Below are positions 1,732 through 64,000 of a DNA stretch of 64,000 bases, piece after piece. The notes beneath the pieces were generated by a model. That model had not been told where the DNA came from and did not search any database. It saw nothing but the letters and a program-made list of their open reading frames with translations. The translations under genes were made by a program, and so were the position numbers. The first letter of the stretch is position 1; each line of letters starts with the position of its first letter. Origin of the DNA: Cyanophora paradoxa CCMP329 (taxonomy: Eukaryota > Plantae > Glaucophyta); assembly GCA_004431415.1 (NCBI GenBank), contig QPMI01000692.1:64204-128203 (forward strand), read 5' to 3'.

Positions 1732-1734
1732 TAA

Positions 1735-6202: not shown

Positions 6203-6220
6203 ACAGGTTTAATTAGAAGA

Positions 6221-7603: not shown

Positions 7604-7642
7604 CAAACCCCGAAATTATTTTCTCCGGTAAATATAAAAGAG

Positions 7643-7957: not shown

Positions 7958-7981
7958 TGTATATGTCGTTTTTTTCATTTT

Positions 7982-8374
7982 TTATGAAATTGGGAACCTT
8001 TGCTCGACCTGTAAGTCCCACTTTCGCACTTTCAGCCTTTCTTGTATGAGTTCGTTAATGTCCCGTGCTATACCCATCGTCTTTGCTTCGGCATTTGAGC
8101 CGCATGTAAAGATATCGATCGCTAATAGCCCCTGGTCGCTATAAGAGTGAGCTGTGGCATGCGACTCATCTAATAGAAAGCCAATCGCGAAACCGGGAGG
8201 GGAAATAGAGCCATCGAAAATGCATGTGTGCTGGTGCACGATGCGCATATTGCGATCTGTGATATATTGCGATAGGTTCGCTGTGATCCACTCGGCGCAT
8301 GCCTCCGGGGACTCAGTAAACGGCTCGGTTATATAGTCGAGCATAACGTGGTAGCCGCGGTATCGGGAATCCAT
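7982..8374 (-). CDS. speD: Prokaryotic-type (class 1b) S-adenosylmethionine decarboxylase proenzyme
   Basis: GYHVMLD N-terminus, PPG, autocleavage site LLDE|SHATAHSY, and IDIFTCG with catalytic Cys; 130 aa, open frame. Confidence 0.88.
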   Translation of the reverse strand: MDSRYRGYHVMLDYITEPFTESPEACAEWITANLSQYITDRNMRIVHQHTCIFDGSISPPGFAIGFLLDESHATAHSYSDQGLLAIDIFTCGSNAEAKTMGIARDINELIQERLKVRKWDLQVEQRFPIS

Positions 8375-8758
8375 TATTATTTAAGTCGATATTTTTGTAA
8401 GCTATGTGGTTTCGTAGCCGCCAAATCGCGCCCTTTGCGAATCTGACCGCGCCGCTTTGTAGTAGCGTAGAACTACTCTATACGCGCGCGGATGCAAAGT
8501 ATAACTAGTGGAGCCTCACGGGAACGCGCGCCGGCGCTCAGAATGTAGCGGACACCTCCGTTTTCGGGCACTTGTGTAGAAATCGAAGTCGGTCTTTGCT
8601 TCACGGTGGGCTTAGCTAGTCAAAGCATAACCATCATGCCCGGAATCAAGGTGTGAGCACGTAGCAATTAAGAGCGCGCCGAGATCGGCTTCCTGTCCAA
8701 AGTTATGCCCGGAAAACGGAAGGGGGTCTCCGCGAAGTCGCGATCGCGATGTTATCGA

Positions 8759-8840
8759 GTCGGGACTCGGGACTCGGGACTCGGAACTCGGGACTCCGGG
8801 ACTCGGGACTCCGGACTCGGGGCTCGGGACTCGGGACTCC
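8759..8840 (+). repeat. ~7-bp (CGGGACT)n minisatellite, about 11 copies
   Basis: cgggact cgggact cggaact cgggact... read directly. Confidence 0.9.
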
Positions 8841-8975: not shown

Positions 8976-11900
8976 AACAAGATCCGTGCTCCTGCGGAGC
9001 ACTAAGTACGGCGAAGCCTCGCGGACGCCCTCGCAGCTGTCACAGTAGGCCTACAGGGCACCCACCGACTGCCAGGCTGGCCAGCGGCCTGGCCGATCGC
9101 GAACAGCTTTCTGGCTGGAAGCTGGCTGGCTGACGGCCAGTCCAGCTAGCGCTGGCCGGCTAGAGGAATATTAATGTACTGAGGAAATAAAGGGTGGAGC
9201 AGATTGAGAGGAGATTAATTATATAATATTGTTGGGAAGGAGGCCCGGGAGGAGCGAAGTTCCCGCGGCCAGGCGCATGCACATGCGTAGAGCTTGCGAA
9301 TCTCTTAGAATGCATATGCTATCAATGTGGAGGGCTGCGGAGGCGAGGGCGCACGGAAATATGTGCAGGCCTGTGCAGGATCGAAAATTTGGCGTCGGCT
9401 GGGTTCTTGTGCTCTTTCGCCCCCAGAGAGCTTGCGCAAAGCTTGGAAAAGCTCTCAAATGAATACTGTACGGATGGGCATGCGTGAGGATGCGATGGGC
9501 ATTCGAAGCTTGTGGAAGGCTTTTAAAACATCTCTGATGAATATTGTAGCGATGCCCGTGCGTGAGGATGCGAGGGCGCGCGGAAAGATGTGCAGGTCTG
9601 TCCAGGATCGAATTTTCGGGGTCGGCTGGGTCCCCGCGGCCCGGCGCATCCGTAAAGCGTGCGGAAGGCTTCTTCTACATCTCAAATGCTTATGCTATTG
9701 TTCCGCGCATGCACCGCGGCGTGGGCGCGCGGAAAGATGTCCGGGCCCGTGCAGGATCGAATTTTTGCCGCCGGCTGGGTTCTCGTGCTCTTTCGCGTCT
9801 TCGAAGCTTGTGGAAGGCTTTGATAAAATCCCAAATGAATATAGTAGCGATGTGCTTGCGTGAGGATGCGAGGGCGCGCGGAAAGACGTGCAGGTCCGTG
9901 AAGGATCGTATTTTCGGGGTCGGCTGGGTCCTCGCGGCCCGGCGCATCCGTAAACCGTGCGGAATGCTTTGTCTACATCTCAAATGCTTATGCTATTGTT
10001 CCGCGCATGCGCCGCGGCGTGGGCGCGCGGAAAGATATCCGGGTCCGTGCAGGATCGAATTTTTGCCGTCCGCTGGGTTCTCGTGCTCTTTCGCGTCTTC
10101 GAAGCTTGTGGAAGGCTTTGATAAAATCTCAAATGAATATTGTAGCGATGCGCATGCGCGAGAATGCGAGGGCGCGCGGAAAGATGTTCAGGTCCGTCCA
10201 GGATCGAATTTTCGGGGTCGGCTGGGTCCTCGCGGCCTGGTGCATTTAGAGACCGTGCGGAAGTCTTCTTCTACATCTTAAATGCTTATGCTATCGTTCC
10301 GCGCGTGCGCCGCGGCGTGGGCGCGCGGAAAGATGTCCGGGCCCGTGTGGGATCGAATTTTTGCCGTCGGGTACCTTCCTGCGCTGTTCCGGCTCCGAAA
10401 AGCGGATTTCGGGGGTGCGCAGGCCGTGCTATGTCTATACGCGCCAGTACGCGTCGATTGCGCGCGTCGCGGGACCGGCCGGAACCGGGAGGATCAAATT
10501 TCGGCGTACTGTTCGGACTGCAGCGTCGAGGGCGCCCGAAATCGAGCTTGCGGCGATGCGCTCGCCCTCGCCCGTCATTCTGTATCGTTCTGGGGCGTCC
10601 CTGGCGCGATTTCGTTGCGGGACCGGGTCCCACCTTCTGACTCGGACTGCATTTGTCGGAGGTTAAGTACCGGAATTGATCCAGAGGGAAATTCGATTTT
10701 CGCGCGACGCCCACGGGGGAGCGGTCGTCTTAGGGGAGCCAGGACGCTAAAAATGGATCTAGAGAGGTCTGTGGGGGTTCGGGTGGCTGAGTGACTAGCG
10801 GCAATCGTGTCCGTGTCGAGGCAGAATTAATAATTCTGTCTCGAGGGAGTGCGACACGGAAATTATTCGGCAGGGGGGATCTCGAGTGGAAAAAAAGGTT
10901 AAAAAAGGAATTTGGATCGGCGGTTTTTGGTTTTGAGACAAGATCCGTGCTCCTGCGGAGCACTAAGTACGGCGAAGCCTCGCGGACGCCCTCATGGCTG
11001 TCACACTAGGCCTAGCGCACCGGCCAGCGGCCGGCCCGGCCGGGCCGATCGTGAACAGCGCTGGCCCGGGCCGGGAAGCTGGCGGCCAGCTGCAGCCCCA
11101 CTTGTACTGGCCCGGCCAGCTAGAGGAATATGAAGGGGAGGGGTACCGGTTGGACTGGCTTTTAACTGGTGGAGCAGATTGAGAGCTCGAGGAGATTAAT
11201 TATAAAATATTGTTGGGAGGGAGGCCCGGGAGGGGCGAGGTTCTCGTGGCCAGGCGCATGCACAGAGCTTGGGAATCGCTTAAACAGAACCTAGAATGCA
11301 TATAGCATCGATGTGCAGGGGTGCGGAGGCAAGGGCACGCGGAAAGCTGTGCAGGCCTGGCCAGGATCGAATTTTAATTTCGGGGTCGGCTGGATTGCCA
11401 CGCCCTGTCGCGCCCGCAGAGCTTGCGAAAAGCTTTCAAAAGATCTCTGATAAATATTGTAGCGTTTTCCATACATGAGGACGCGAGGGCGCGCGGAAAG
11501 CTGTGCAGGACCGTCCAGGATCGAATTTTCGGGGTCGGCTGGGTCCCCGCGGCCCGGCGCATCCGTAAAGCGTGCGGAAGGCTTCTTCTACATCTCAAAT
11601 GCTTATGCTATTGTTCCGCGCATGCACCGCGGCGTGGGCGCGCGGAAAGATGTCCGGGCCCGTGCAGGATCGAATTTTTGCCGCCGGCTGGGTTCTCGTG
11701 CTCTTTCGCGTCTTCGAAGCTTGTGGAAGGCTTTGATAAAATCCCAAATGAATATAGTAGCGATGTGCTTGCGTGAGGATGCGAGGGCGCGCGGAAAGAC
11801 GTGCAGGTCCGTGAAGGATCGTATTTTCGGGTCGGCTGGGTCCTCGCGGCCCGGCGCATCCGTAAACCGTGCGGAATGCTTTGTCTACATCTCAAATGCT

Positions 11901-14534
11901 TATGCTATTGTTCCGCGCATGCGCCGCGGCGTGGGCGCGCGGAAAGATATCCGGGTCCGTGCAGGATCGAATTTTTGCCGTCCGCTGGGTTCTCGTGCTC
12001 TTTCGCGTCTTCGAAGCTTGTGGAAGGCTTTGATAAAATCTCAAATGAATATTGTAGCGATGCGCATGCGCGAGAATGCGAGGGCGCGCGGAAAGATGTT
12101 CAGGTCCGTCCAGGATCGAATTTTCGGGGTCGGCTGGGTCCTCGCGGCCTGGTGCATTTAGAGACCGTGCGGAAGTCTTCTTCTACATCTTAAATGCTTA
12201 TGCTATCGTTCCGCGCGTGCGCCGCGGCGTGGGCGCGCGGAAAGATGTCCGGGCCCGTGTGGGATCGAATTTTTGCCGTCGGGTACCTTCCTGCGCTGTT
12301 CCGGCTCCGAAAAGCGGATTTCGGGGGTGCGCAGGCCGTGCTATGTCTATACGCGCCAGTACGCGTCGATTGCGCGCGTCGCGGGACCGGCCGGAACCGG
12401 GAGGATCAAATTTCGGCGTACTGTTCGGACTGCAGCGTCGAGGGCGCCCGAAATCGAGCTTGCGGCGATGCGCTCGCCCTCGCCCGTCATTCTGTATCGT
12501 TCTGGGGCGTCCCTGGCGCGATTTCGTTGCGGGACCGGGTCCCACCTTCTGACTCGGACTGCATTTGTCGGAGGTTAAGTACCGGAATTGATCCAGAGGG
12601 AAATTCGATTTTCGCGCGACGCCCACGGGGGAGCGGTCGTCTTAGGGGAGCCAGGACGCTAAAAATGGATCTAGAGAGGTCTGTGGGGGTTCGGGTGGCT
12701 GAGTGACTAGCGGCAATCGTGTCCGTGTCGAGGCAGAATTAATAATTCTGTCTCGAGGGAGTGCGACACGGAAATTATTCGGCAGGGGGGATCTCGAGTG
12801 GAAAAAAAGGTTAAAAAAGGAATTTGGATCGGCGGTTTTTGGTTTTGAGACAAGATCCGTGCTCCTGCGGAGCACTAAGTACGGCGAAGCCTCGCGGACG
12901 CCCTCATGGCTGTCACACTAGGCCTAGCGCACCGGCCAGCGGCCGGCCCGGCCGGGCCGATCGTGAACAGCGCTGGCCCGGGCCGGGAAGCTGGCGGCCA
13001 GCTGCAGCCCCACTTGTACTGGCCCGGCCAGCTAGAGGAATATGAAGGGGAGGGGTACCGTTTGGACTGGCTTTTAACTGGTGGAGCAGATTGAGAGCTC
13101 GAGGAGATTAATTATAAAATATTGTTGGGAGGGAGGCCCGGGAGGGGCGAGGTTCTCGTGGCCAGGCGCATGCACAGAGCTTGGGAATCGCTTAAACAGA
13201 ACCTAGAATGCATATAGCATCGATGTGCAGGGGTGCGGAGGCAAGGGCACGCGGAAAGCTGTGCAGGCCTGGCCAGGATCGAATTTTAATTTCGGGGTCG
13301 GCTGGATTGCCACGCCCTGTCGCGCCCGCAGAGCTTGCGAAAAGCTTTCAAAAGATCTCTGATAAATATTGTAGCGTTTTCCATACATGAGGACGCGAGG
13401 GCGCGCGGAAAGCTGTGCAGGACCGTCCAGGATCGAATCTTCGGGGTCGGCTGGGTTCTCGCGGCCCGGCACATCTGTAAAGCGTGCGGAACGCTTGATC
13501 TACATCTTAGATGCTTATGCTATTGTTCTGCGCATCCGCCGCGGCGTGGGCGCGCGGAAAGATGTCCGGGTCCGTGCAGGATCGAATTTTTGCCGTCGGC
13601 TGGGTTCTCGTGCTCTTTCGCGTCTTCGAAGCTTGTGGAAGGCTTTGATAAAATCTCAAATGAATACTGTAGCGATGCGCATGCGCAAGGATGCGAGGGG
13701 GCGCGGAAAGATGTTCAGGTTTCTAGCTATAGAGGATCGAATTTTCGGGGTCGGCTGGGTCCCCGCGGCCCGGCGCACGTGCAAAGCGTGCGGGGTGCTT
13801 CTTCTACATCTCAAATGCTTATGCTATCGTTCCGCGCATGCGCCGCGGCGTCGGCGCGCGGAAAGATGTCCGGGCCCGTGCAGGATCGAATTTTCGCCGT
13901 CGGGTACCTTCCTGCGCTATTCCGGCTCCGAAAAGCGGATATTTGGATTGCGCAGGATCTGCTATGTCTATGCGCGCCAGTACGCATCGATTGCGCGCGT
14001 CGCGGGACCGGCCGGAACCGGCCGGATCAAATTTTCGGCCTACTGTTCGGACTGCAGCGTCGAGGGCGCCCGAAATCGAGCTTGCGGCGATGCGCTCGCC
14101 CTCGCGCGTCATTCTGTATCGTTCTGGAGCGTCCCTGGCGCGATTCCGTCGCGGGACCGGGCGGGACCGGGTCGACGTCCCACCTTCTGATTCGGACTGC
14201 GTTTGTCGGAGGTTAAGTACCGGAATTGATCCAGAGGGAAATTCGATTTTCGCGCGACGCCCACGGGAGAGCGGTCTTCTTAGGGGAGCCAGGACGCTAA
14301 GAATGGATCTAGAGAGGTTTGTGGGGGTTCGGGGAGCTGTGTGATTTGTGTGTGATGGGGGAAGCGTCACGTCCGTGTCGAGGAAAAATTATTAATTTTT
14401 CACGAGGAGGCTGCACAGGGAAATTATTTACAGGGGAGATGAAAAGTTTCGGGTTCGAATCCGACCGGAATTTGGCTCGTTGTTGACCGGGTTTGAGAAA
14501 GAGGCTTCGCCTGAAAGAGGCTTCGCCTGATAAA
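8976..14534 (-). mobile_element. Non-autonomous Helentron/Helitron2 (DINE/HINE-like) head-to-tail trimer with internal satellite arrays
   Basis: Subterminal inverted repeat GGCGAAGCCTC (9010-9020) vs GAGGCTTCGCC (14501-14511, 14517-14527); hairpin GTGCTCC-tgc-GGAGCAC (8986-9002); minus strand ends in CTTGT|T and starts in a T-run. Units restart at ~10938 and ~12850; internal ~300-bp subrepeats. Confidence 0.75.
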
Positions 14535-14734: not shown

Positions 14735-15544
14735 TTATTTTTCACCAAGTTCATAGTTAGTCATAATGAGATGGTTTCTTTTCTTTTTTGTCATACCATA
14801 CACTTTGCCATACGTATGGCGAATATAGGGTTTAAATAGGAGTTTCATTAAAAGAGCATCATTTACAACCATCATAACCTTGCATTTCGCTGTCTTAAAT
14901 AGGTCTTCCAAATCCAAAAAGAAGGTTTCTAAATCGAATTCTACATTTTCGTAAAAGTCATTATTGCTGTTTACGTATGGAGGATCGAGAAATATAAAAG
15001 CCGCTTCATCATCTCTATATTTGGCTACGATATCGCGAAAATCCCCATGGGATAGGCTGGCTTCTTTTATGAAATCATCGTAAGGTATCTTCTTTTTAAG
15101 AGTTGTATATGGACTCACCTTCACGTTTCGTTTTTTGAAATCACGGAGGGTTTTAACATTTAAAACGCTGTTTTTAAGAAGATAGAAATGGTGAGCCAAG
15201 TAATCCATTGCATCTTTACGATCATGTTGTAGAAACTTCTTATAGACTTCTTTATGCTCTTCTATATTGCTAACTGCTTCGAACTGTTTAAGACTCTCTA
15301 AGAGTTTAACTTTATTGTCTGGGTCTTTCATTGTATTCAAAAAAAGGGTATGGGTTTCGTCGTTATCATTCATATAATAATTAAACCGGTCTTTATGCTT
15401 TTCCCAAAGATAGAAACTACAAGCACCTGAACCACAAAACGGTTCTATAACTTTATTAATTCCTTCTAAATCGATATATGGATAGATCGTATCCATTTCA
15501 TTATACTTGTTGCCGGTATATTTATGGTAAAAGTGAGTCTTCAT
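14735..15544 (-). CDS. D12-class (Dam-like) N6-adenine DNA methyltransferase
   Basis: Y-T-G-N-K, IEPFCGSG (motif I), MND, FIFLDPPY (motif IV); 269 aa, intact, AT-rich, intronless. Confidence 0.9.
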   Translation of the reverse strand: MKTHFYHKYTGNKYNEMDTIYPYIDLEGINKVIEPFCGSGACSFYLWEKHKDRFNYYMNDNDETHTLFLNTMKDPDNKVKLLESLKQFEAVSNIEEHKEVYKKFLQHDRKDAMDYLAHHFYLLKNSVLNVKTLRDFKKRNVKVSPYTTLKKKIPYDDFIKEASLSHGDFRDIVAKYRDDEAAFIFLDPPYVNSNNDFYENVEFDLETFFLDLEDLFKTAKCKVMMVVNDALLMKLLFKPYIRHTYGKVYGMTKKKRNHLIMTNYELGEK

Positions 15545-49077: not shown

Positions 49078-49355
49078 CCGGCGGCGCGCGAGGGCGTTAT
49101 AATTAGGGGCGGGGCCGGGGCCGGGGGCGGGGCGGCCGGCCGCGTTGTCCCGGCGGCGCGCGAGGGCGTTATAATTAGGGGCGGGGCCGGGGCCGGGGCG
49201 GGGCGGCCGGCCGCGTTGTCCCGGCGGCGCGCGAGGGCGTTATAATTAGGGGCGGGGCCGGGGCCGGGGGCGGGGCGGCCGCCGCGTTGTCCCGGCGGCG
49301 CGCGAGGGCGTTATAATTAGGGGCGGGGCCGGGGCCGGGGGCGGGGCGGGGCGGC
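49078..49355 (+). repeat. ~72-bp tandem repeat x4 with TTATAATTA and G-runs
   Basis: ccggcggcgcgcgagggcgttataattaggggcggggccggggcc... repeated. Confidence 0.9.
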
Positions 49356-50870
49356 CGGGCAAGGGCGGCGGTGTCTACGTATACGTGGCGAGCCTCGGAG
49401 CGGCGGCGGCGGCCAAGCGCGGCGCCGGCGGCTGCGGGGACTACGTATACGATCGCGAGGTCCCGGGCCGGGTGCGCCCAGTTTATAATTAAGTCCGATC
49501 CGGCGGCCGCATCTCGCTGGGTAGGCGGGCGGGTCCGCGGATGCGAGCTAGTGTACGTATACGAAGACTCTCATAGTATAGCTAGTCAGAGTAAGTCAGA
49601 GTATAATTAATATTAAGGCAGCTAGCTATAGGATCCCAAAGCTTAAGGGCTCGGCCAGGGCGATAGATCTAGATCTAGAGAGAAGGCCAGCGAGAAGCAG
49701 GACCGGAGAAAATGGGACGCACCCCCCGGGGCGAGGCTGGCCACCGTCGGGAGGAGGGCGAGGAAAAGAAAAGAGAACAATTGCAAAACAAGCGGAGAGA
49801 TTAGGCCGAGGGCCCGGCCCGGGGTTCGGCGGATGGCACGTCGTTCGAACGCCGTCCACCCGCGCGCGCGCGCCTCGCAGTGAATGAGTGGTAATTTGGG
49901 AACTGCGGGGCGGGCGTGATCATGATCATGAGGCCCGGGCAGGTGACGCGAAAGACGCGCAATGCGGGGTGATGTCCCTTTGCTCGACCGTAAAAAACAA
50001 CGTTGACCTTGAATTGACTTTGTGATCATGAGATCATGATCAATCGTTTCGATATCGATATCGTGTAGCTGCCCCGGACCGCCCCGCGACTCGGCGAGCT
50101 CGAGGTGGCGCACTACGACATCAATCCCCAGAGCCCCGTGGCAGCCGCCGACATCGCCTTTGCAATTGGGATCCTTTTTCACGCCACGGTTTCGCGCTGG
50201 TTTGAATTTCGGGGGCACATGTACATGTACAGCGCTAGTGCGCGCCGCCTTTCAGCCGGCAAGGGCCGGGCCCCGCGAGCAACGCCGCCGCCACGAGCAG
50301 GGGCCGCGGCCACGAGCAGGGGCCGCGGCCGGGGATGCTGGGGGGGGGGGGGGGAATACATGCCCCGACTTGCAATATTAATTGAGATCTGAGCTATAGA
50401 CGCCGACAGACTGAAAGCTTACCTTAGTAAAGTTTGCAATTGCGCACGGAGTCTCAGGGGCTCCCCGGAGTCTCAGAGTCGTGCGCGCGCGAGAGAGGTC
50501 CGACATGTACTAGTGTACACTGTGACAGCCGTTGCTCAGCGGCTGGCCATGGCGTCGATCGCGTCGCGCCGCCGCCGTCGACGTTGTTGGCTATAATTAA
50601 TAAACGGTCGGCCGGCGCCGTACGCGTACGCGCGCCTGCCACTAGTACTAGCTAGCGCTGTATATACGTGGGCCTTTGTGAAGCGTTGAGCTCTCGAGCT
50701 TGCCCCTTCGCTGTCAATGCATTGTTAACCCTCGGAGGTTGCATGAGTCACGCGTCGCGGAGGTTTGGGTGTTATATTGCGATCAGGTACACGCTGCACT
50801 AACAGGGGGGCTAGCACTAACCGACGCGGGGAGTAACAGCCGGTGTACCCCTCGGGGGGCCTCCCGGCCT

Positions 50871-51653
50871 CTAACGATGCTCAGGCTCTAACTGAATGCT
50901 GTACCCCCCGCTGTTACTGCCCGAACCTTCCGAACTTGCGTAATTCGGCCTCGCCCTGTACCCAGTGGCTGGTGTCGTCCATCCATTCGCGTACCTCCCT
51001 CTGACGCTTGAGTGACTCACGCTGCTCGGGGGTAGGGGAGGGGGGGCCTTCGAGGCGGGGTGGGAAGGGGGTACGGTGGCAAAATTCAGCCACTCGGGGG
51101 GTATGCCGAATTCGCCGTGAACGATCCTCTGCGGTGTGAAATACCGGTCGCTGCTCACGGCCAAGTGGAAGAACGCGCTCCTGAGCCCGGAGAGGAAGCG
51201 TGGTTGCATGAATGGCTGCTGGAGGGACTCGTCGCGCCAGGGGGCTACGAAATCAATGATACGCTGCTGTACCTGCGCGGGCAGGGCAAGGATCTGGCTC
51301 TTGCGGTTCGCAAAGGCCGTCCACAGCGCTTGCAGGTCGGCCCAATCGCCGTTCAGATCCCTGCGTTCGCGCCTCAGGTACGATCTCGGGTTCTCTGTCA
51401 TACCCATCAAGCCCGCGGCCCTGATCATCTCCCTGTCCGGGAGCTCTCGCTCGTCGTGGAATTCGTCTCTAATCCAGCGCACAAGGTAGAGCACGCGCTC
51501 CATGAAGTTCTCCGCCGGCGAGCCGCCCCCTGAGGACGTGCGCCTCCCCTCCAGCACTGCGTTCGCATCCTCCAAGTCCACGTTCCGCTGTCGAATCTCC
51601 CCGTCCAGGTCGCCGTTGTTGTACAGCACGTCGGACTCGCGTGTTCGCGCCAT
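50871..51653 (-). CDS. Hypothetical viral-type protein
   Basis: Intronless ORF MARTRESD...; shares LWxAFxxRKS..LPxxVQxxI motif with the upstream ORF. Confidence 0.6.
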   Translation of the reverse strand: MARTRESDVLYNNGDLDGEIRQRNVDLEDANAVLEGRRTSSGGGSPAENFMERVLYLVRWIRDEFHDERELPDREMIRAAGLMGMTENPRSYLRRERRDLNGDWADLQALWTAFANRKSQILALPAQVQQRIIDFVAPWRDESLQQPFMQPRFLSGLRSAFFHLAVSSDRYFTPQRIVHGEFGIPPEWLNFATVPPSHPASKAPPPLPPSSVSHSSVRGRYANGWTTPATGYRARPNYASSEGSGSNSGGYSIQLEPEHR

Positions 51654-51687
51654 GCTCGCGGCTCGGTGAGAATTTATACCTGTACCC

Positions 51688-52416
51688 CTACTCGCGGTCG
51701 GGGTATCGAGGGCCTGGCAGCCTCGCGCGCTTCCGCAGCTCGGCCTCGTCTGGCGACCAGCTCGTCGGATCATTGCTGTACTCCATCCACCTGCGAATCT
51801 GACCCTCCCGCAGTATCTCTTGGCGCTGCTCCGCCGTGGGCGCCGGTGGGCCGTACGGTGGGCCGGCAGGCGTCAGTTTTCTATACTTGTATCTCTTGAA
51901 CCGTTCTTCCATATTGTCTTGTTCTTCGTCCCATCCTTCAGGGATCAAATCCGATGGGGGACATAGGGTACCACCCATTCATCTTCCTTGTTTTTGGCGT
52001 GGTGAACGAAGCCTTGGAAGTAGTGCTTCAAAATATTGAGCGGGCGATTGATGATCTCCGTGCGAGTGCCCGCATTCAGGAAGAGATCCAGTATAACTCT
52101 CTGAACGTCTTGGGGCAGGTAGGTCATGGGGCTCTTGCGCGAGCCGAACGCCCACCAGAGCTTGCGAAGTTCATCGCGAACCCTGCCCATGTCGTCCCTG
52201 TGTTCGATTTCGTACACCGGCGGCTCATACGTTCGGATGTCTACCCTGGACCGAGGCCTCTGCGTGCCACATCGCGCAAATACGTCGCAGCCATGCCCCG
52301 TCTCGCATTGTATTGGGGATCTCTTCTTTCACCCAGCCGATCAGCCCGTTTACCTGCTTAGTGTAATCTCGGATGTACCCCGATAGCGGTGGGAGGGTAG
52401 TCTGATTATCAGACAT
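51688..52416 (-). pseudogene. Frameshifted paralog of the 50871-51653 protein
   Basis: Three consecutive ORF pieces (52225-52428, 51945-52217, 51688-51978) containing LWWAFGSRKSPMTYLPQDVQRVILD. Confidence 0.5.
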
Positions 52417-52466: not shown

Positions 52467-53131
52467 ATGCATACCGATACAGATTGCGAGACTTGCGAGA
52501 ACTTACAACAGGGGAGCGCGGCGTGGCACGCGGCGCGCCGTGAAAAACTAACTGCATCTAATTTTGCGGCTGCGTGCGGTATAAACCCTGGAAATCCAGG
52601 GCCCGCCTGTGGGCGGAGCTAAGCGGGATAGCGGAGGAAAACAACTTTGACAACCCTGCCCTAACCTACGGGCATGACTATGAGCCCTTCGCGGTCTCTC
52701 TCTACAAAACGTTGAACAATAACGTGGACGTGCAACATACTGGATTGCACGAACATAAGGAACTGCCCTTCCTGGCGGGGAGCCCGGACGGGCTAATCGG
52801 AAACGATCGCATACTCGAAATAAAATGTCCGTACAAACAAGAACTCTACGACAAGGTTCCTACCTATTACATGACGCAGCTGCAAGGACTTTTAGACATA
52901 ACGGGCCGCGAGTGGGCCGAACTTTTTTGCTTCACGCCTCTGCGCGTGCGAACGTGGTACGTCAGACGGGACGAGAGGTACATTCAGCTCATGCGGCGGT
53001 GCTTACATCTATTTTGGTCGCACGTGAAGGCTGGAACTCCGCCCGAGCCCTACAGCGATCGAATGAAGTCAGAGAACCTCAGCGAGGAGCAGGCGGCGCT
53101 GCGCGAGTTTAAGTTGTACGCCCTCCTCTAG
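52467..53131 (+). CDS. YqaJ-like viral recombinase / lambda-exonuclease (1-bp frameshift at ~52585)
   Basis: QQGSAAWHAARREKLTASNF, YGHDYE, FLAGSPDG, LEIKCPY and YYMTQLQG motifs. Confidence 0.9.
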
Positions 53132-53385
53132 TGTCTCGACCCTCTCAGATATTAATTTAAAGATCTGGGAGGGTCGGGACACGTCTCTTGGTCAGACTAC
53201 TTATGTACGCCCTCCTCTAGTGTCTCGACCCTCTCAGATATTAATTTAAAGATCTGGGAGGGTCGGGACACGTCTCTTGGTCAGACTACTTATGTACGCC
53301 TCCCTCCTCTAGTGTCCGGACCTTTCCAATAATCTATAAAGAAAGTAGGGAGGGTCCGGACACGTCTCTTGGTCGGACTCACCGT
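53115..53385 (+). repeat. 89-bp tandem repeat x3, each with a 50-bp AT-centred palindrome
   Basis: Palindromes at 53132-53181, 53221-53270 and 53313-53362; further copies at 53659-53708 (reverse), 57001-57050 and 57087-57136. Confidence 0.92.
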
Positions 53386-53809
53386 AGCTTGGTGTAGCTC
53401 AGGCCCAGGCGGGGAAGGCGAGTCTGCAATGAATCAGACCCCACAGGATTTGGTTGAGCTGCTCTTTGCAGGGGGGCAGGAAGGCGGCCGCAGAGGGCTA
53501 GGGAGACTAGATCTAATTAGTAATCCCACACCGCGCATGTGCAAGCGACAGAGAACGAAGTGAGTAAATGCAGATCGATGATACGGCAATCATGAGTTGT
53601 TCAGAAAAGGTCGGGACACATAGAGAGTGCATGCCCTCACTCTCGTCCGCCCTCGCAATGTCCCGACCCTCCCAGATCTTTAAATTAATATCTCAAAAGG
53701 TCGAGACATTCATTGATCATATGCATGACGTCACTTGAATTCGCACGTTCGTATTTACACACTGGCACGCGCATCCCGTTCGCGAAGTCCACACTGTGAC
53801 ATCCGACAA

Positions 53810-56800
53810 TCACACGCGCCTGTGAATGAGAGCATAGCAGTCGGAGAAAACGTTGTAAACCTCTGGGAAGCTTGGCGCCATGCCTGCCCTTGCCTGCTTA
53901 GCCTGGCGCTCTACTGCGTCGTCGAGCATGTCTTCCTCCCACGTGATGTAGCGTCGCTTTCGGCTGCCCATTTGCCCTCCGTCCGCGTCGGAGAAAGCGC
54001 GTCTCACTCCGAGGTACTTCTCCAGCAGGTACTTGATGACTTGCCAAGACTGCTGCGAGAGCCGCTTCTTCTCACCGTCCGCTGCATCGAAGCGGGGCGC
54101 GCGCTCGTCCAGACTCTGCAGAGCCGCGTACGCCTCCCGACCTCCGGCGACGCCAGGGCCGCGTAGGCTTCGTCCGACCACAGAGCACGCCCCGCGAGCT
54201 TTCCATACCCCGCCAGCCGAAGAGTTTCTTGAACAGCGCGACGACCTTCGATACCTTGAGGCGCTCAGCAGTAGGCACGATCTCGGCAACGTCCGCGCCA
54301 TGCTTCAGCACCAGCGTGACCACGGCAGTGAGCGGGATGGAGTAGAACGAATCCACATCCAGGCGACGTCTCCTTCGGTCAGCTCGCTCGGATCCTTGGC
54401 CAGGAACGCGGCGATCGACGTGCGAGCAAGCGAAGCAACCTTCTCGATGTCCAGCTTAGCGAGAGACTCGCGGACTGCCTCCAGGCCAGCACCGTGCTCC
54501 ACAGATCGACGGGCTCCAGCGCGCCCGCCTCCAGCACGCTCCTGATCTCGCGCAGCCGCTGCTCCTTCTCCTGCTTCGGTCCGCTCGGGTTTTGATCCTC
54601 CGTGACTTGCACGTTCATCAGCGCGCAGGTCGACATCAGCCGCAGGCGCGCTGCCACTGCGAGGCGCCGAGTGGGCATGCCGGCGCGGCGGCTCCCGCGG
54701 TGGCTAGCCTTCAGGTCCAGGTAGCGCTGCATGTCGTCCGAGCTCTCGTCGTCGTCGCTCTCACGCCAGTGCGCAGCGCCGCGCCGACCGCAACCGAGGG
54801 CGTCCGGTTCTTGCGCACGGCGACGAGCAGGTGCTCCCCGTCGGGCGTGCTGCGTTTGCGCAGCCTTCTGACTCGAAACAGCAGCTGCACGATGTCGTCC
54901 GCCTCCAGCTGCGCGGGCTCTGCCTGGAACACGCCGTAGACCTTGTCAAAGTGCGCGTCCGAAAAGTCCACGCCTGCCCGAGCGCGGAAGTTGCGATGAG
55001 CACGTCGCAGGCCTTGTACGCGCCCTCCTCAGACACATCGATCGACACGATGCGCACTGGGCCGTCGTTCGTGAAGCGCACGCTCTTCTCCTTGGCCTGC
55101 CCAACGATGAGCCCGATCGTGAACGGTGCGCCGCTGCCGTCCTCGGGCCCTGCCTCGAGCTGAGTCACGTACTGAGCGCCGCCAGGCTGAGCTGCTCCAG
55201 CGCCTGCTTCGCAATCTTCTCCTGCATCTCGATCGCCTTGGCCGGCGTCTCTGCAATGATCATCGCCCGGCAGCGCCCGGTCTGCACAGCGCCATGATGT
55301 CCGCCTCGACGTGCGCCGGGCTGTCTGACACGCGCATCTTCCAGTCGCAGGTGCGATGCGAGTTGTACAGGAGCCCCAGGCGCGCCCCGACCTCCTGCGC
55401 CGACTCTGCCAGGTACGCGAGATCGACCGACCGAACGAAGCCGTCCATCGCCACGATGCGCGATGCCTTCATCACGCCGCGCCATAGGCCCACGCAGCGC
55501 GCGTTTCGAGGCACTGACCGCATACCTAGGTGCAGGCCGGTGGGCTCGAGGGTGCCGCTCGAGGTGAGGTGCTTCGTGAGGGAGGAGAGCTCGTCCAGCA
55601 CGACCAGTAGCGGCGCCGTCGACCAGCCCTCCCAGTCCTCGAGCACCTTGTGCAGCGAGTCCATGTGATGACGACGCACCTGCACTCCTCATGGCGGAAG
55701 CCCACTTGCCATGCGATCCCTTTGAGCTCTCCGGTGGCTTCTTGATGTCCATGTAAAGCACGGCGTCCTTTGACAACTCCGCAGCATCAATGCGACGCTT
55801 GAGGTCGCGGGAGAAGGCCCGGCGGCAAGTCACGAGGATCACTCGCCAGCCGCCTGCAAGGGCCGGGTCCAGGTACGCATCGATCAGCGCCTGCGTCTTC
55901 CCGTGTTGAGTCCGAGCAGATGACGTCGACCTGCGGCTGAGCGGATCTCGGGTTCTGCTCCAGCGCCCCGAATGCGGAGGTAAGGATCTTGCACGAGAGG
56001 TGGCGTTCATCCACTGCATTGACGCAAGCCTCCAGGCCCGTCGACTCGAGCGCGATCAGGAGGGAGGGGAGGGCAATGTCGAAGGCGACAGGCTGCGAGG
56101 GATCGGTCACATAGCGGGTCTGTGCCACGCTGCCCGACTCCCTCCGGTCCCTCCCCTCGAGCTCGACTTCAATACCGTGCGCCTGGATGGAGATTCGAGC
56201 CGCCGGCGCCCCCGGCTGACTCCCGCCCAGGACGAGGGTGATGGACCCGTCGGGCTCGACTCCAAGGTGCTGAACGCGGCGGGCGTCGTGCAGGCCAAGG
56301 TCCGCGCGCAGCTCTGCCCCGCCTTCCAGATCTCGTCCTCACCGCCTTGTTCTTGCGCAGGCGGTCCAGGAGCCGCTCCAAGGCCGGCAGGCTTGGGCTC
56401 GAATCCAGGAGAGCGCCCGGCTCCGGGATGGGCTTAGCGCGGGGCGCCGAGCTTCTGGATGGAGTGGGGAGGAGCTCCGCTCGCGGCCCGGGCGCCGGCC
56501 CCGCAGAACGTAGCCCCCGTGCATCCACACCGAGCTCCAGGCCGCTCGAGCTCCCAAAGAACCATGCATGAGATCGCAAGCCTCCGGGCTCTGTAGGACG
56601 TAGGCAGCCTTGAATCCATTATCCAAGGGGCGAGAGAAAGTGAAGCCTCCGAACTTGGTTGCAAAGGCGCAGGCTGCCGCGGTGCTCGTCTCATCCTCGG
56701 CACCCGAGAAGTGGCTGGGGGTGATGCAGGGCGGGTGGAAGACGCAGAAAGCCGTCCCCAGGGTCGGGCTGCAGGCCTTCTGGACTTCGACGAGAGGGAA

Positions 56801-56911
56801 TCGAACGAAAAAGCTGCACTCCTGCTCGCTCAGATCTATCTGCTGTACCCCGGGCCGGGCATACGGGCCAGGAAGGCGTCGACGTCGAGAGACACGCGTC
56901 CGGTTGCCATG
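53810..56911 (-). pseudogene. Herpes UL9 / NCLDV replication-origin-binding-protein-like SF2 helicase, multiply frameshifted
   Basis: GKTQAL (Walker A), VILVTCRRAF, MDSLHKV, VVLDELSSLTKHL (Walker B), IVAMDG, VLIATS..GVDF..HFDKVYG and QLLFRVRRL, in the correct order across frames. Confidence 0.75.
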
Positions 56912-57000
56912 GTCGTCTCTCTATAGCTAGGCTTGGAAAATTCTAGATCTACTAGGCTAGTCAACGTCTGTTGGCTAGCTATAGTCGACGTCTGGACTGC

Positions 57001-57136
57001 TGTCTCGACCTTCTGAGATATTAATTTAAAGATCTGGGAGGGTCGGGACAGGCTCTGGTCCGTCTGGATCCGGACTGCTCAGCGGCTGTCTCGACCTTCT
57101 GAGATATTAATTTAAAGATCTGGGAGGGTCGGGACA
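57001..57136 (+). repeat. Two copies of the 50-bp AT-centred palindrome upstream of the helicase gene
   Basis: tgtctcgaccttctgagatattaatttaaagatctgggagggtcgggaca twice. Confidence 0.92.
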
Positions 57137-58289
57137 GGCTTTGGTCCGACCTTAAGCGCTCAACTAGACCCGGTTGACACCGTCTTGATCTCTCCTTCTT
57201 GGCGCAGCGGACGATGTGACGCGCAGACCGTCGGCCCGGCGGACGGGGAGGCGCGCGCGTAGAACTTCGGAAGCGCTAGCCCTTGCTTGACCGAAGCTTA
57301 GAAAGTTTTGAGCGCACGTGAATGCGACACGTGTAGAGAGAAGGCAGAGCGCGCCGGAGCTAGCTTGCGCGGCCGAGCGCTCGACCGCCTTTGCTCCTAA
57401 GCTCAGAAAGTTTTGGGCTCACGCGGTTGCTCCACGTGTTTCGACTCAAAACACAGTACCCCAACCCGAAAAAAAGCGCCCGGGCAGCGCATCTCGCAGC
57501 GCCCGGGCCCAGCGCTCCTTGCAGCACTTGCCAGAGGCACTAGCTTGCATTCCGCTCAGCCCGGAGAGCCGCCGCCTCGCTCCTTTCGATTCGGAGGTGC
57601 GCCTCACTTCGCAACCTCTTTCTCCGCACCACGGCTAGCTCCGGACCTCAGATTTTGGGCGCTGGAAAGCTCTCTCGACGCCGCACTCACGCCGCCACGC
57701 GCAGGGTCGCTCGCGCCGGCCGCGGACCTTCGAAAGCTCGATGGCGCCCGAGCCGGAGCACTCCGCCGCATCCCGCAGGTGCCAGCTCGCTCTCTTGCCG
57801 CTCTATCCCTTGCATTTAGCACCTAGAACATGCCCGCAACCTCGCGCTCGATTCGCCCGCGTCCGCTGACATTTGGTCTCTGAGCAGGTGCCGAGATTGG
57901 CCGCCGCGCCTTCCGCAACTCGAGCCGACGTTCGCGGCGACTTGCGCACGCTTCTAGATCTCGTTCTCAAGCCCGCGCATCGATTCGGCGGCTCCGGCTC
58001 GCCTCCCCGCGCCTCCAGCCCCGCGCCCCACACCCGTTCTTGTCCTAGCTAAGCCCTCCCTTGTCCGCGGCCAGTCGCGGGCTACGCGCATCGCGGATAG
58101 CATCAGTGGAGCTACGTTTCAGCGCTGGACGCAGGCCCGCCGCCAATCCCTCCCACCTCCCGCTCGCAGCACGCTCACTGGGCCGCAGGCAGCTTCGCGG
58201 GGAGCCGCTGGATTCGAAGCCGCGCACCTTCCCCGCCCGTCCCGACGTCGTACGCGCTAACGTCGCCCGCGCCGCAGGTGGCCGCCAGG

Positions 58290-59373
58290 CCTCCTGCATC
58301 CAGGCCTTCGAGCCGGCGTGGCTGCGGGCGCAGCGCCTCGGCTTCTGGCAGGAGACGGCCTCCTGTCCCTCACCCGCTTCATCATCGCCCACTGCGCCGT
58401 CGACCCACCACCTACGTCGCCGCCCGAACACGGAGGGCTACATGACGAGCGTCGCGGGCATCGTCGAGTACATCGCGCGCACGGAGGGCCCCGACACCTC
58501 GCCGCCGTCGGCGCCGACATCGAGAACGGCCGGCTGGACGAGACCCTCGCCGGCTTCGGCTCCTGGTGCCGCCCTACTCCTACAAGCTCGGCGGCGTCTG
58601 GCAGACCTACATCCGCGGCATCGTCCCCAAGGCCCGCTCTCCCTCGGCGAGAGCCAGCCGGCGCTGGAGGCGATCGCGATCCCCGTCGCCCAGTTCAAGG
58701 ACCCGGTGGCCGACGTCGGGCCTTCCTCGTCAAGCCCCACACAAGGGCAAGGGCAAGCGCACCCGCAACTCGGCGCCGGCCTTCCTCCCGCCCAGCCCCC
58801 GCCACTGCCCCCAGCAGCGCCCCGGCCAGCAGCGCATCGACGAGATGCTGCCGCGCCAGGTCCGGCCCGCGTACCCCCGCTTTCCTCCCGTACCCCCCTC
58901 CCCCGCCCCCTCCTGATCCAAGGGCAGGGTACCTCCGCCTCCCCGCGAGCGCCGACGGCCCAGCCCCCTCCCGGCCCGGCGCCGTCCTCACCGCGATCCA
59001 GGGCTTCGGGGCCCAGCAGGAGGCCGAGCGGCGGGCGCTGGCGGCGCGCCAGGCGCGCGAGGCGGAGGAGCGGCGCCAGGCCCTCTGGCCCAGCGCCTGC
59101 AGGCCACCATCGCCTTCCGCGCCGAGCTGGACTCCGGCTTCCGCGCCGGCCAGATCGCCGGGGCGGAGGCTCGGAGCGCTGGCGGGCGTTCGAGGCGGAG
59201 TCGGCGGGGCTGGCGAAGGGCCTCGGCTACAGCTACCGGCGCGTGCCCGTGCTCAAGGACTACGCGTCGGCCGCGGCGCGGAGGCCTCGCGGGCGGAGAT
59301 CGACGCGGCGGAGGAGCAGGCGGCGCGCGAGGAGGCCGAGGACAACGCGCGCTTCCGGCACCTGCACCACTGA
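58290..59373 (+). pseudogene. Heavily frameshifted hypothetical viral-type gene
   Basis: Coding-like peptides hop between frames (EGYMTSVAGIVEYIAR, PYSYKLGGVWQTYIRGIVP, LGYSYRRVPVLKDY). Confidence 0.45.
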
Positions 59374-59700
59374 GGCCCCGAGGCGGTATTTTTCTCAACC
59401 CTCCCTCAATTCGGTCCCGCGATGGCCTTCGAAGCTTATCCTGCCCACTACTCGCTAGAGCGCTGGCCGCGACCTCACCTGGCTCCTCGGCGGCACCCCA
59501 CGGCCTCGGCGGTCATAGGCGTGGGCTTCGGCTACGCCGCCAAGTCCCTCTACGCCCCGGCGGCGCCTCGCAGGCGGCGGCCGGCATGCGCCCCGCCGGG
59601 CGCTAACTTTTCAAAGTTCATTCTCCCCTCCCCTTTTCCGAGTTCCGAGTCCGTTGGCGTTCCCTTTTAAATTTTCTTCATTCTCGTTACACGTTCGAAG

Positions 59701-60177
59701 ATGTCGAGCGCGGTAGAGAAGCTGCTGTGCACCGTGTTCAAATCGGATTCGCGATGCAGCAAGATCGGCGAGGCGGCGAGGGCTAAGGGCGGGGCGGCGG
59801 CGGAGGGGCCCAGGGTGAAGGCGGCGGATCCCGCGCCGCCGTCGCTGAAAACGATCAAGGGGGCGGGCAAGGGCAGGAGCGTGGGGGCGCTGCCCTCGTG
59901 GCGATCGCGCCGGGCAGAGGGAGGCGGCGCACGCGGCGACGGCGGCGCTGGCCGCGCGGCGGCAGGCGGAGGCCTACCCGTGCCTGGGCCGGGGGCTGCA
60001 CCCGCCGGCCGGCCGCCCTACGCCGTGAGCGCCTACTTCGACGAGGCCAACCGGCTGAGCTGCCAGGAGCTGTGCGACAACCGCATGCGGCGCGCCGTGG
60101 ACGGGCACCTGCCGCTGCTGGTGGCGCTGGGCGGCTCGCTCCTGATGGTCTGGTACCTGCGCGGCCTGGTCATTTAG
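59701..60177 (+). CDS. Small protein(s) with C-terminal transmembrane helix
   Basis: ...LPLLVALGGSLLMVWYLRGLVI*; TTTTCT motif upstream of the ATG. Confidence 0.5.
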   Translation: MSSAVEKLLCTVFKSDSRCSKIGEAARAKGGAAAEGPRVKAADPAPPSLKTIKGAGKGRSVGALPSWRSRRAEGGGARGDGGAGRAAAGGGLPVPGPGAAPAGRPPYAVSAYFDEANRLSCQELCDNRMRRAVDGHLPLLVALGGSLLMVWYLRGLVI

Positions 60178-60203
60178 ATAGTTTTTCGAAGTCTAGGTCA
60201 AAG

Positions 60204-60604
60204 ATGGGCTGGGTGGACGCCGTGCTGACCAAGGTCTTCGGACCGAAGAGCGCGCAGCCGCCGCCGAGCTTCAACCTGGCCGCGGCGATCAGCACGACGA
60301 TCGAGCGCAAGAACAACGAGCTCATCCTAAAGAACGACGGCAAGCTTCCCTGGGCCGACGTGGCCGCGGGCGCACTCGGCAGCACGCTGACGGGAATCGA
60401 TCGGACGGGCGCCGCGGCGTGAAGGTCGGGCAGGCGGTTGCGGCCGTGCCGGAGCTTGCGATGAAGGGCTGGCACTACGCCAAGATCGCCGCCGGCGTCG
60501 CCGCCGTGCTCCTTGCGATCTGGCTCGCGTGGCAGCTGCGCGGCGCCTACCAGGGCGCGCGCCTGCAGAGCGCCCAGCTCGACTATTTTCTAAAGGCTAG
60601 GTAA
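60204..60604 (+). CDS. Small membrane protein (one frameshift at ~60420)
   Basis: MGWVDAVLTKVFG...KIAAGVAAVLLAIWLAWQL. Confidence 0.5.
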
Positions 60605-60616
60605 AGCGAGCGAACC

Positions 60617-60895
60617 ATGCGCGGCGGCTCTTCCCCCCGTGTTTCCTTCGCTGAGAACCCGGTGGCGAACGCAGTCGCCCCTACCCCCCTGGAGCCCGGA
60701 GTGAAGCTGGAGCGTGCGAACGCAGTCTCCACCAAGAAGGCCAAGCGCGCGCTGGCGCTGGAGGTCCCGGTCGCGGAGGATACGGAGAAGGTTGCATTCA
60801 ACAAGCGCAAGACGTACAAGGCGATACGCGAGGGACAGCTGCTGCCACGGACTCGGTTCCCGGGCTGCCGGGCACCACGGCCGGCGAGCTCCTAG
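60617..60895 (+). CDS. Small basic hypothetical protein (3' end probably frameshifted)
   Basis: ATG preceded by TATTTTCTA; coding-like codon usage. Confidence 0.4.
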   Translation: MRGGSSPRVSFAENPVANAVAPTPLEPGVKLERANAVSTKKAKRALALEVPVAEDTEKVAFNKRKTYKAIREGQLLPRTRFPGCRAPRPASS

Positions 60896-61346
60896 TGCGC
60901 AACCTGCGCCTGCAGTACGTCTCCCGCCTCCGCCGCTCCAAGGCCAAGAAGGCGCGCCTGGACTCGGGCGATAGCAGCTCTAGCTCGTAGGGCTCTGTAC
61001 TGTTGTATTCAATGCCTTTACCAGTTCCTGTTCCTATCCAGAGCACGACTCGGGTGAAGGGCACGGTCATAGCGAACATGAACTCGGCGAACTTTGCAAA
61101 GTTCATCAGGGTTCCCAGGCGGGGATCCTCCAGTAGATCGCCTCGCGCAGCGCCTCGTAGACGCGCATGAGGGAGCGCTCGTTCTCCGTCGCGAAGGCGT
61201 CGCCGGGCTCGTCGGGGTCGGGATCCGTGAGCTCGGAGTACTCGTCCGAGCTGCCCGCGCTCTCGGCACTGCGGCGGGGTCGGGCGAGGGTCGGGCATTC
61301 TTTGCTGGTAGAAGGGTTAGAAGAGGGACCAGAAAATCACTAGCAA

Positions 61347-61687
61347 TCACGGGCGCCGGAACTCCATCGAGTCGCCGCGCCAGTACTTGTTGCCGGAGGC
61401 GAGCAGCTTCATCGGCTCGCCCGTCGAATCGTGCTTCCAGGCCTCGCCGTCCCAGAGGGCCGTGCCGCCGTCCTCTAGCTTGAGGCGGTGGCCCGGCTCG
61501 AGCCGGTTGCCGTCGAGCATGCGGCCGGCCATGAGCGCCAGGTCCCACTCGGTGAGGTTGCGCTGCTCTGCGGGGGTGAGGCCGCGCTCGACGCGCTCGG
61601 GCTGGCGCGCCTCGCGCTCATGCGGCTGAGGCCCACCAGGAAGAAGATGGGCAGCGCAAAGGCCATGAGATCTAGCAGGGCCTCCAT
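61347..61687 (-). CDS. Small protein with N-terminal hydrophobic anchor (frameshifted)
   Basis: MEALLDLMAFALPIFFLVGL, then NLTEWDLALMAGR...ALWDGEAWKH in another frame. Confidence 0.4.
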
Positions 61688-62051
61688 TGAGGAGGGACTT
61701 AGAAAAGGTTCCGGACCAGGCCCGAGAGCTGCGGGCCCAGGCGCCGGGCGGCGTAGTAGAGCGCGGCCGCCGCCGCGCAAGGATCAGAAGGCGCGGCGGG
61801 CCGCGCGCCGGCTCCTCCAGGGTCAGGTCCACGGTCTCCGGCCCGCGCGCCGGAGCCGCCAGGATCTCGGGCTCGGAGCAGAGGGACTTGGGCCGCGGCG
61901 GCGGCGCTGCTTGGGCGCCGAGGCGGCGGCGGTGAGAAGGTCCTCAGGCTCCTGCTTGATACCTGCGCAATCGGTGAAGTCCATGCTTGCTGGGTACTTG
62001 GAAAATTGTGGGAGGCGTCCGGAGTGTGCGAACGTAGCTCCAATGGGATTT

Positions 62052-63130
62052 GCGTCATTTACGTCCGCGTCATTTACGTCACGGAGTTTGCCGGCGACTC
62101 GGGACTCGGGCCCAACTTCTCCGGTAAGTTCGAGACTTGAACTCGGCGGGGTACCCCCGGTGTCCTAGTGTCCTAGTGTCCTAGTGCTACTAGCTAGGTG
62201 GTATCGATATCTAGCTAGCTAGCGCTAGCGCTTGCTTAATTAATTAACCTGAAGGGTCGCGTCATTTACGTCAGCGTCATTTACGTCACGGAGTTTGCCG
62301 GCGACTCGGGACTCGGGCCCAACTTCTCCCGGTAAGTTCGAGACTTGAACTCGGCGGGGGTACCCCCCGGTGTCCTAGTGTCCTAGTGTCCTAGTGCTAC
62401 TAGCTAGGTGGTATCGATATCTAGCTAGCTAGCGCTAGCGCTTGCTTAATTAATTAACCTGAAGGGTCGCGTCATTTACGTCAGCGTCATTTACGTCACG
62501 GAGTTTGCCGGCGACTCGGGACTCGGGCCCAACTTCTCCCGGTAAGTTCGAGACTTGAACTCGGCGGGGGTACCCCCCGGTGTCCTAGTGTCCTAGTGTC
62601 CTAGTGCTACTAGCTAGGTGGTATCGATATCTAGCTAGCTAGCGCTAGCGCTTGCTTAATTAATTAACCTGAAGGGTCGCGTCATTTACGTCAGCGTCAT
62701 TTACGTCACGGAGTTTGCCGGCGACTCGGGACTCGGCCCAACTTCTCCCGGTAAGTTCGTCACGACCAGTAGCTACTAGTACCGCTAGTACTACGTAGTA
62801 CTACTTAGTACTACTTGGTATACTTAGTACTACTAGCTTAGTACTAGTAGCCACCGATACTGGTACAGCTTTTATAGATTTAAGCATTCATTCAATGTGA
62901 ATAACGATAATAGTAATAATAATAACGATAAGTAATAGGGATACCTATTTTCCAAGTCTCGAACTTACCGGGAGAAGTTGGGCCCGAGTCCCGAGTCGCC
63001 GGCAAACTCCGTGACGTAAATGACGCTGACGTAAATGACGCGACCCTTCGGTAACCTCCGCAACCTTCAGGTAAATGTCAGGTAACTTCAGTTGAGTTAA
63101 TTAAGCAAGCGCTAGCTAGCTAGATATCAC
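62052..63130. repeat. 210-bp tandem repeat (~3.4 copies) plus an inverted copy across an AT-rich core
   Basis: Units at ~62052, 62259, 62469 and 62679; inverted copy ~62953-63049; paired TTTACGTCA motifs in each unit. Confidence 0.92.
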
Positions 63131-63539: not shown

Positions 63540-64000
63540 AAATGAGAAAAGCGCCTCGAGTCGGCCTTTATCTCTCCTTGTCAGGATGTCACCTGATCCG
63601 GGTCACCTGAGAACGGCGCATCGAACGCCACGTGGAGCGATTTGCAGGCCTGAGCTATCATTGGCTCGGGCCAGGCCAGCTCGATCAGCTGAAGGTAGAT
63701 GTTCAGGGCCTTGTCGAGCTTGGCGCCCTGAGGACTAGCTGGGAGATAGCGGGCTCCATGGTACAGCAGAGCTTTAGAAAATGGCGCCAAGTCCAAGTCC
63801 TTTTTACGGGCGAGGCCTGGGCCGGGGGCCAGGGCCGAGTCCCAACTCCGTGACGTAAATGACTGAGTAAATGAGCGGACGTAAATGACGCCGAATTTTC
63901 AAGTTGCCCTCACCTGAAACTCAGCTGAGCGCTCACCTGACCCTCACCTGAACGGCCTCAAAACCGACGCCCGCCGCGCCTCTCCTCACACTTCAAAGCC

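Follow-up and report, generated by a model that had tools for sequence, protein, structure and literature searches.

We examined the letters of a 64-kb stretch of DNA from the alga Cyanophora paradoxa (hereafter the window, to which all coordinates refer). Two genes converge in it: a gene for a YqaJ, or lambda-type, exonuclease (52467..53131, + strand; PF09588, E 8e-20) and a gene of about 3.1 kb for a superfamily 2 (SF2) helicase, read from 56910 down to 53810 on the opposite strand. The first-pass annotation had described this convergent pair, and the positions bear it out. Six copies of a 50-bp, AT-centred palindrome stand in arrays around the helicase gene. The exonuclease gene has a single break near 52585, where the reads carry one extra base. 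Its PD-(D/E)XK core was recognised by PF09588 and by TIGR03033, and the SPDG and ExKCP motifs were invariant in all nine aligned sequences.

A strict arm pattern was matched by five of the palindromes, beginning at 53132, 53221, 53659 (reversed), 57001 and 57087, against a shuffle expectation of 0.00 (100 shuffles). The sixth, at 53313-53362, is a variant, so that all six copies listed in the first-pass annotation were recovered where it had placed them. Each of the six folded with a z of -4.0 to -8.2, a value equalled by none of 200 shuffles. Three copies stand behind YqaJ on the plus strand: copy 1 (53132..53181) begins immediately past the YqaJ stop codon, copy 2 (53221..53270) follows in an 89-bp tandem unit, and copy 3 (53313..53362) has variant arms with one compensatory pair. 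Behind the helicase lies the reversed copy 4 (53659..53708, -), 101 nt beyond the stop codon, together with a truncated seventh copy of one arm (53609..53618, -) at 90 bp from it. Two further copies precede the helicase, copy 5 (57001..57050, +) at 90 nt 5' of the ATG and copy 6 (57087..57136, +) in an 86-bp unit, both within an array spanning 57001-57150. The array period is thus 86-92 bp. Every palindrome of the window falls within 4 kb around the helicase, and none was found elsewhere in the window.

The right 15 bases of the palindrome are identical in five copies, with copy 3 deviating at one base, and the centre is A or T at 10-11 of 12 positions. Stem mismatches in copies 1 and 2 are G-T, as had been noted before. 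Across the copies, each of the five distinct wobble positions (5/5) shows G-T, never A-C, on one particular strand. That strand is the transcript-sense strand, on which RNA folding is 7-12 kcal/mol better. This polarity is compatible with RNA as well as with single-stranded DNA, and it cannot tell the two apart. Copy 3 had been credited with compensatory stem changes: one true double change was confirmed in the outer arm, while the inner stem proved to be broken. Contig loose ends near the left array carry further palindrome variants, one of them with an altered inner stem that still pairs. An Rfam search returned sub-threshold microRNA hairpins only. A palindrome scan of IMG/VR gave a single locus (L001), a 47-nt match without the AT centre, which we judged to be due to chance.

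The arrays are related to one another in two ways. The left array (53132-53286) and the right array (57001-57150) form a direct repeat, 82.6% identical over 155 bp including the spacer, and the unit bracketed by these directly repeated arrays measures 3.87 kb. Copies 4 and 5, the palindromes nearest the gene, flank the helicase as inverted repeats; their near-identity, proposed at first sight, amounts to 98% complementarity.

The helicase gene (53810..56910, - strand; about 1,040 amino acids, with no introns seen) is interrupted in the window about a dozen times over the mapped part of its reading frame. These frameshifts are very likely long-read assembly errors, because one extra base stands at full depth at the listed breaks in the contigs of two DNA-type runs (12 of 30 rows listed), paralogue models cross the breaks at 100% identity, one placeholder per break restores a single open frame, and the C. 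paradoxa assembly was built from PacBio reads (PMC6704402); collapsed contigs are no proof of this for the single copy in the window. The restored frame, obtained by the repair that the first-pass annotation had proposed, comprises 720 codons over 53813-55960. Judged from the sequence, the gene is probably intact. Host genes have 9.2 introns on average, and the absence of introns from a 3.1-kb gene in so intron-rich a host is therefore a mark of foreign origin. As a separate observation, contig depth in run X17 reached 13,000-37,000 over the 3' end of the gene (53871-54190), compared with about 120 further in.

To place the helicase, we compared it with profile and structure collections. PF02399 (cut-off 20) scored 29.7 bits with model P0001, 22.5 with P0016 and 21.7 with P0042; P0044, without part of motif I, stayed under the cut-off at 17.2 bits. 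The herpes simplex virus 1 (HSV-1) origin-binding protein was the top PDB match both by sequence (E 0.009) and by fold (E 4e-4), and giant-virus origin-binding proteins took ranks 1, 3 and 4 in a viral fold library. All fold matches carry the caveat of a weak structure model, with a mean predicted local distance difference test score (pLDDT) of 41; a single-sequence fold of P0006 (pLDDT 36) was unusable. The strongest profile match was CyRepA1 (NF042913; E 1e-15) at 57.6 bits, far under the curated cut-off of 200, and hhalign aligned both helicase lobes with CyRepA1 over 313 columns (probability 95.5, 22% identity). The protein had been labelled UL9-like or origin-binding-protein-like. The SF2 core is indeed of the origin-binding type, with PF02399 above its cut-off, but the label is too narrow, and a UL9/R8/CyRepA1 group accommodates the CyRepA1 core alignment.

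Catalytic residues of motifs I, II, V and VI are kept across the helicase subfamilies described below. The N-terminal 300 amino acids are 33% identical between subfamilies and gave no match in Pfam, NCBIfam, PHROG or Atlas. No AEP primase was found there, the window copy and P0016 sharing no acidic motif in a region where the structure model is unreliable. The DUF3854 domain, present in L082, was absent from the four Cyanophora helicase models scanned. Among 50 structures listed, UL9 alone aligned past the first helicase lobe into the C-terminal part, and did so loosely.

Proteins near-identical to those of the window genes bear C. paradoxa accessions. Counted from the clusters looked up, and therefore as lower bounds, there are 31 helicase accessions, which include alternative transcripts and come from no fewer than 22 named contigs, and 14 YqaJ paralogue accessions, which are 95-99% identical among those compared. 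The helicases form four subfamilies that are 43-73% identical. Seven of the 14 YqaJ accessions adjoin a helicase accession, five according to gene names on one contig and two by accession number only, where the chance of such adjacency is about 0.002 per gene. The pair is thus a repeated module. The neighbouring helicase belongs to subfamily A in five cases and to subfamily C in two. YqaJ P0033 (beside C) and P0007 (beside A) are 97% identical, whereas the C and A helicases are 67% identical; a helicase cassette has therefore likely been exchanged beside a near-constant nuclease, as far as these sequences can tell. GC content is 55% in YqaJ vs. 66% in the helicase. Gene numbers point to a helicase-YqaJ-helicase order and to tandem helicase pairs, both of which may be artefacts of the gene models.

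Contigs depart from the window sequence at 53295, 53424 and 53486, that is, at or just beyond this array, and the DNA that they enter is present nowhere in the window. Summed contig depth over the left array is about seven times that over the helicase in both DNA-type runs, a rough figure that is not a copy number. With the module copies, the swaps and the direct repeats, the mobile cassette that had been listed as an alternative has gained real support. Directly left of YqaJ lie two or three intronless-looking open reading frames (ORFs) of no known family (50871-52300, -). Other copies part from the window sequence next to them, at 52412, and these ORFs may or may not belong to the element.

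Searches outside Cyanophora returned no relative of the helicase: not among 1.84 billion representatives, which were searched with a profile of only the 548 C-terminal positions, nor among 7,996 candidates that were scored (178-1,140 amino acids), nor in viral and metagenome contigs, in phages, or in plasmids at E 0.01. One candidate, P0017, was an insect repeat protein matched spuriously and was dropped. Of ten weak plasmid matches listed, nine were cyanobacterial and eight were annotated as CyRepA1 or DUF3854. Distant R8-type proteins escape these searches, and the results therefore speak for isolation of the helicase and not for an absence of kin. YqaJ had two relatives (64% and 49% identity), both on short contigs, and none in the metagenome contigs searched; a helicase match was found in none of 81 viral loci retrieved.

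A spliced antisense RNA with at least ten GT..AG introns covers the helicase (53746..57045, +). Ten GT..AG stretches of 47-117 nt are skipped on the plus strand, and the corresponding joints were present for 10/10 in run X15 and 7/10 in run X17, compared with 0/10 in each of the DNA-type runs X3 and X4. X15 and X17, which come from different studies, are classed as RNA from these splice joints alone, no run being recorded as RNA. Most of the introns contain branch-point-like words. A coding antisense gene was considered and rejected: the spliced frames are closed by 8-21 stops each, the longest spanning 304 codons, and the RNA is therefore likely non-coding. It is likely made by the host RNA polymerase II, perhaps as read-through from YqaJ. 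An argument from the strand bias of intron-like motifs was circular and was dropped. One further plus-strand GT..AG joint, from an X15 loose end, lies past the right array (57597-57704, +).

The element appears to extend to the right of the helicase. A TTTTCNAAG motif, picked by eye, stands 30 nt 5' of the helicase ATG (56932..56940, -) and is shared with small ORFs; this motif type, spotted in the same way, occurs nine times in the window vs. 1.8 expected. With a looser TTTTCNAAG pattern applied to 52-64 kb, eight of ten matches, that of the helicase included, are followed by an ATG at a distance of 11-32 nt. The packed small ORFs at 58443..61984, some with hydrophobic stretches, gave no Pfam or PHROG family where scanned, and viral contigs contained no relative of the ORF at 59701. 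On another contig, model P0003 fuses the 60204 ORF with a helicase, the two being on the same strand there, unlike in the window. Through the shared upstream motif and P0003, the small ORFs at 59-64 kb are linked to the element of the helicase, to which they likely belong. A 210-bp repeat (3.4 copies, with an inverted partial copy over an AT-rich spacer; 62052..63049) is a candidate end or junction of the element. This repeat also holds doubled TGACGTAAATGACG words, more of which occur at 63851-63890 and which we take to resemble CRE/ATF sites.

We hypothesize that this locus of the nuclear genome is the module by which an as yet undescribed endogenous virus-like element replicates, with the helicase as initiator and the hairpins as both origins and recombination joints. 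We advance this reading tentatively, at somewhat less than even confidence and from sequence comparison, because of the protein family, the confinement of AT-centred arrays to the flanks of the gene, the invariant arm, and the binding of UL9 to the hairpin form of its own origin (PMC12543377). The C-terminal part of the helicase would recognise either the hairpin in its folded form or the invariant arm, which is rich in purines; the AT-rich centre would melt, and the element would be copied in the nucleus by host polymerases. YqaJ resection followed by strand annealing between arrays could then duplicate, invert or replace the helicase cassette, and the hairpin arrays would double as joints for swapping helicase versions. 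Origin, terminator and circle-integration roles of the hairpins are not exclusive of one another.

Several observations count against this hypothesis. The C-terminal domain of the helicase has no family match, and its superposition on UL9 is loose (265 residues, root-mean-square deviation 9.7, reaching UL9 residue 805, in a low-confidence model). None of the ten helicase accessions of subfamilies B and D has a known YqaJ neighbour. In variant palindromes pairing is kept while the sequence varies, which suits a reading by structure better than one by bases. The ORFs scanned at 50-64 kb, several of them broken and in an element that may exceed the window, include no capsid, ATPase, polymerase or integrase, and no VLTF2/3, HUH, RuvC or double jelly-roll capsid was seen in the window. 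The word virus therefore rests on gene style. Finally, copies 1-3 and copy 4 occupy exactly the places expected of hairpins at the 3' ends of two convergent mRNAs, and each mRNA would carry the form that tolerates G-U pairs.

This last point leads to a possible but rather unlikely alternative, that the palindromes are RNA hairpins at the 3' ends of element transcripts, as in mimiviruses, and that the helicase, encoded by a replication gene of the usual kind in an endogenous virus, does not bind them. The position of copy 1 at the YqaJ stop and of copy 4 shortly beyond the helicase stop agrees with it, as do the strictly G-T wobbles and the better RNA fold on the transcript-sense strand, the loose-end variant that changed its inner stem and retained pairing, and the fact that copies 5 and 6 face the far end of the antisense RNA. 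However, mimivirus hairpins are unconserved in sequence (PMC4402537) and the palindromes here are near-identical; none follows any of the seven small ORFs that have the upstream motif; no protein gene terminates at copies 5 and 6; and RNA-type contigs extend past the left array, the additional plus-strand joint lying past the right one. Terminator hairpins had been offered as an alternative from the start. They would account for the placement of copies 1-4 and for the polarity of the G-U pairs, but the sequence conservation, the upstream copies and the absence after other ORFs speak against them.

Alternatively, the helicase with its arrays may be a 3.87-kb, plasmid-like circular replicon that integrated by a single crossover into the array behind YqaJ, the right array being the duplicated target. 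We regard this as unlikely taken as a whole, yet no other reading explains the direct repeats and the swaps as well as circle integration does. It is favoured by the direct repeat of the arrays with their spacer, by the occurrence of one YqaJ beside different helicase subfamilies and the tandem and helicase-YqaJ-helicase gene numbers, by the difference in GC between the two genes, by the plasmid initiator family that is the best profile match, and by the strand of the 60204 ORF relative to the helicase, which differs between P0003 and the window. Neither a circle nor an empty site was observed: among the joints listed for four runs none skips the cassette or closes a circle, though contigs break at the arrays. 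The arrays are 17% divergent, and any integration event is therefore old. The upstream motif common to the helicase and the small ORFs suggests a single transcription programme, and the tandem gene numbers may be artefacts. In a broader version, to which we give a similarly low probability, a nuclear mini-replicon of 3.87 kb, made up of one CyRepA1/UL9-type initiator helicase and hairpin origins of its own, would enter and leave a YqaJ-bearing endogenous virus by recombination at the arrays and be curbed by the antisense RNA. It would come in four or more sequence types, with a different palindrome variant for each, and would amount, in a eukaryote, to an exchangeable replication cassette of plasmid-like character.

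That the palindrome is a dispersed repeat resembling a miniature inverted-repeat transposable element (MITE), or a selfish hairpin, which inserted next to these genes several times without serving any function for them, is very improbable: its TGTC...GACA ends and tandem copies look like small inverted-repeat elements, but no consistent target-site duplication flanks the six copies, depth over the left array exceeds that over the helicase by a factor of only about seven (the rough figure above), and the lack of linkage to the helicase foreseen for a MITE was not found in the window, where every copy lies beside that gene.

Elsewhere in the window, a separate low-GC (46%) Polinton-like stretch (276-8840) encodes an rve integrase (E 7e-14) and the C-terminal domain of a UvrD-type helicase. 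It also contains a likely polymerase-like region, seen by eye and without a Pfam match, along with in-frame stops at several places and, at 8760-8839, a tandem repeat of TCGGGAC. An intronless gene for a D12-class adenine methyltransferase, typical cargo of endogenous viruses, lies in an AT-rich patch at 14735-15544 (-; E 4e-16). A 149/298-bp tandem repeat occupies three blocks at 9502-13903, and a 71-bp tandem repeat (3.9 copies, 49078-49357) has a TTATAATTA core within GC-rich arms, with TTATAATTA again at 49046 and 49483.

Much is known about this group of helicases from herpesviruses and, in their capacity as replication proteins, from plasmids of cyanobacteria. No described origin was found, in the literature consulted, for the relatives in giant viruses and protists. 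Here a probably intact, expressed helicase sits amid short, well-defined candidate origins and exists in four diverged versions in a culturable model alga, so that the pairing of initiator and origin is open to direct testing. The locus further outlines an endogenous element in glaucophytes. Should excision and reintegration of the cassette occur, the cassette would represent a type of mobile nuclear replicon that we did not find in the literature. No description of the module, the arrays or the exchange pattern was found in the literature searched. Already known are the family of each part and the presence of endogenous giant-virus regions in glaucophytes, including this alga, which are noted in general terms in section 9 of PMC12344493; six contig names sought in a supplement file of that paper were not there.

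Among known systems, the mimivirus hairpin rule likewise places palindromes at the 3' ends of genes, but the palindromes described here are conserved, tandem, confined to two genes and also present 5' of the helicase. Polintons and Polinton-like viruses share with this locus a multi-copy endogenous life in protists, closely packed ORFs without introns, and replication modules that vary (PMC10120064; 10.64898/2026.06.19.733378). In agreement with the earlier statement that this is no standard Polinton, neither pPolB nor an integrase, capsid or packaging ATPase was recognised among the ORFs scanned at 50-64 kb. The usual replication-helicase substitutes in Polinton-like viruses, according to the same two sources, are of superfamilies SF1 and SF3.

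Herpesvirus UL9 and its origin oriS resemble the module in the SF2 motif pattern, in palindromic arms around an AT-rich spacer, and in the lack of a recognised primase. They differ in that identity is 14-18% in fold alignments, that the Cyanophora helicase is longer at the N-terminus by some 300 amino acids, that six palindromes stand in arrays here, and that no other herpesvirus gene is present. The RVKNL recognition motif described for UL9 (PMC12543377) was not seen in the Cyanophora helicase sequences inspected. CyRepA1 (NF042913), which supports plasmid replication (PMC9978351), aligns in both helicase lobes and shares an aromatic residue in motif VI. Unlike CyRepA1, the Cyanophora helicase is nuclear, eukaryotic and paired with YqaJ, scores 57.6 bits against the 200 required, is without DUF3854, and has N- and C-terminal parts that do not align. 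The giant-virus primase-helicases (mimivirus R8, ASFV F1055L, SmDNAV and those of some mriyaviruses) have an intact AEP primase, carried at the N-terminus in R8-type proteins (10.1101/2024.02.29.582850; 10.64898/2026.08.29.747986) and undetected in the Cyanophora helicase; nor was a capsid, VLTF or HUH gene seen in the window. They are the top matches in the viral fold library, and SmDNAV combines YqaJ with a UL9-like helicase, has no polymerases of its own and presumably replicates in the nucleus (10.64898/2026.08.29.747986).

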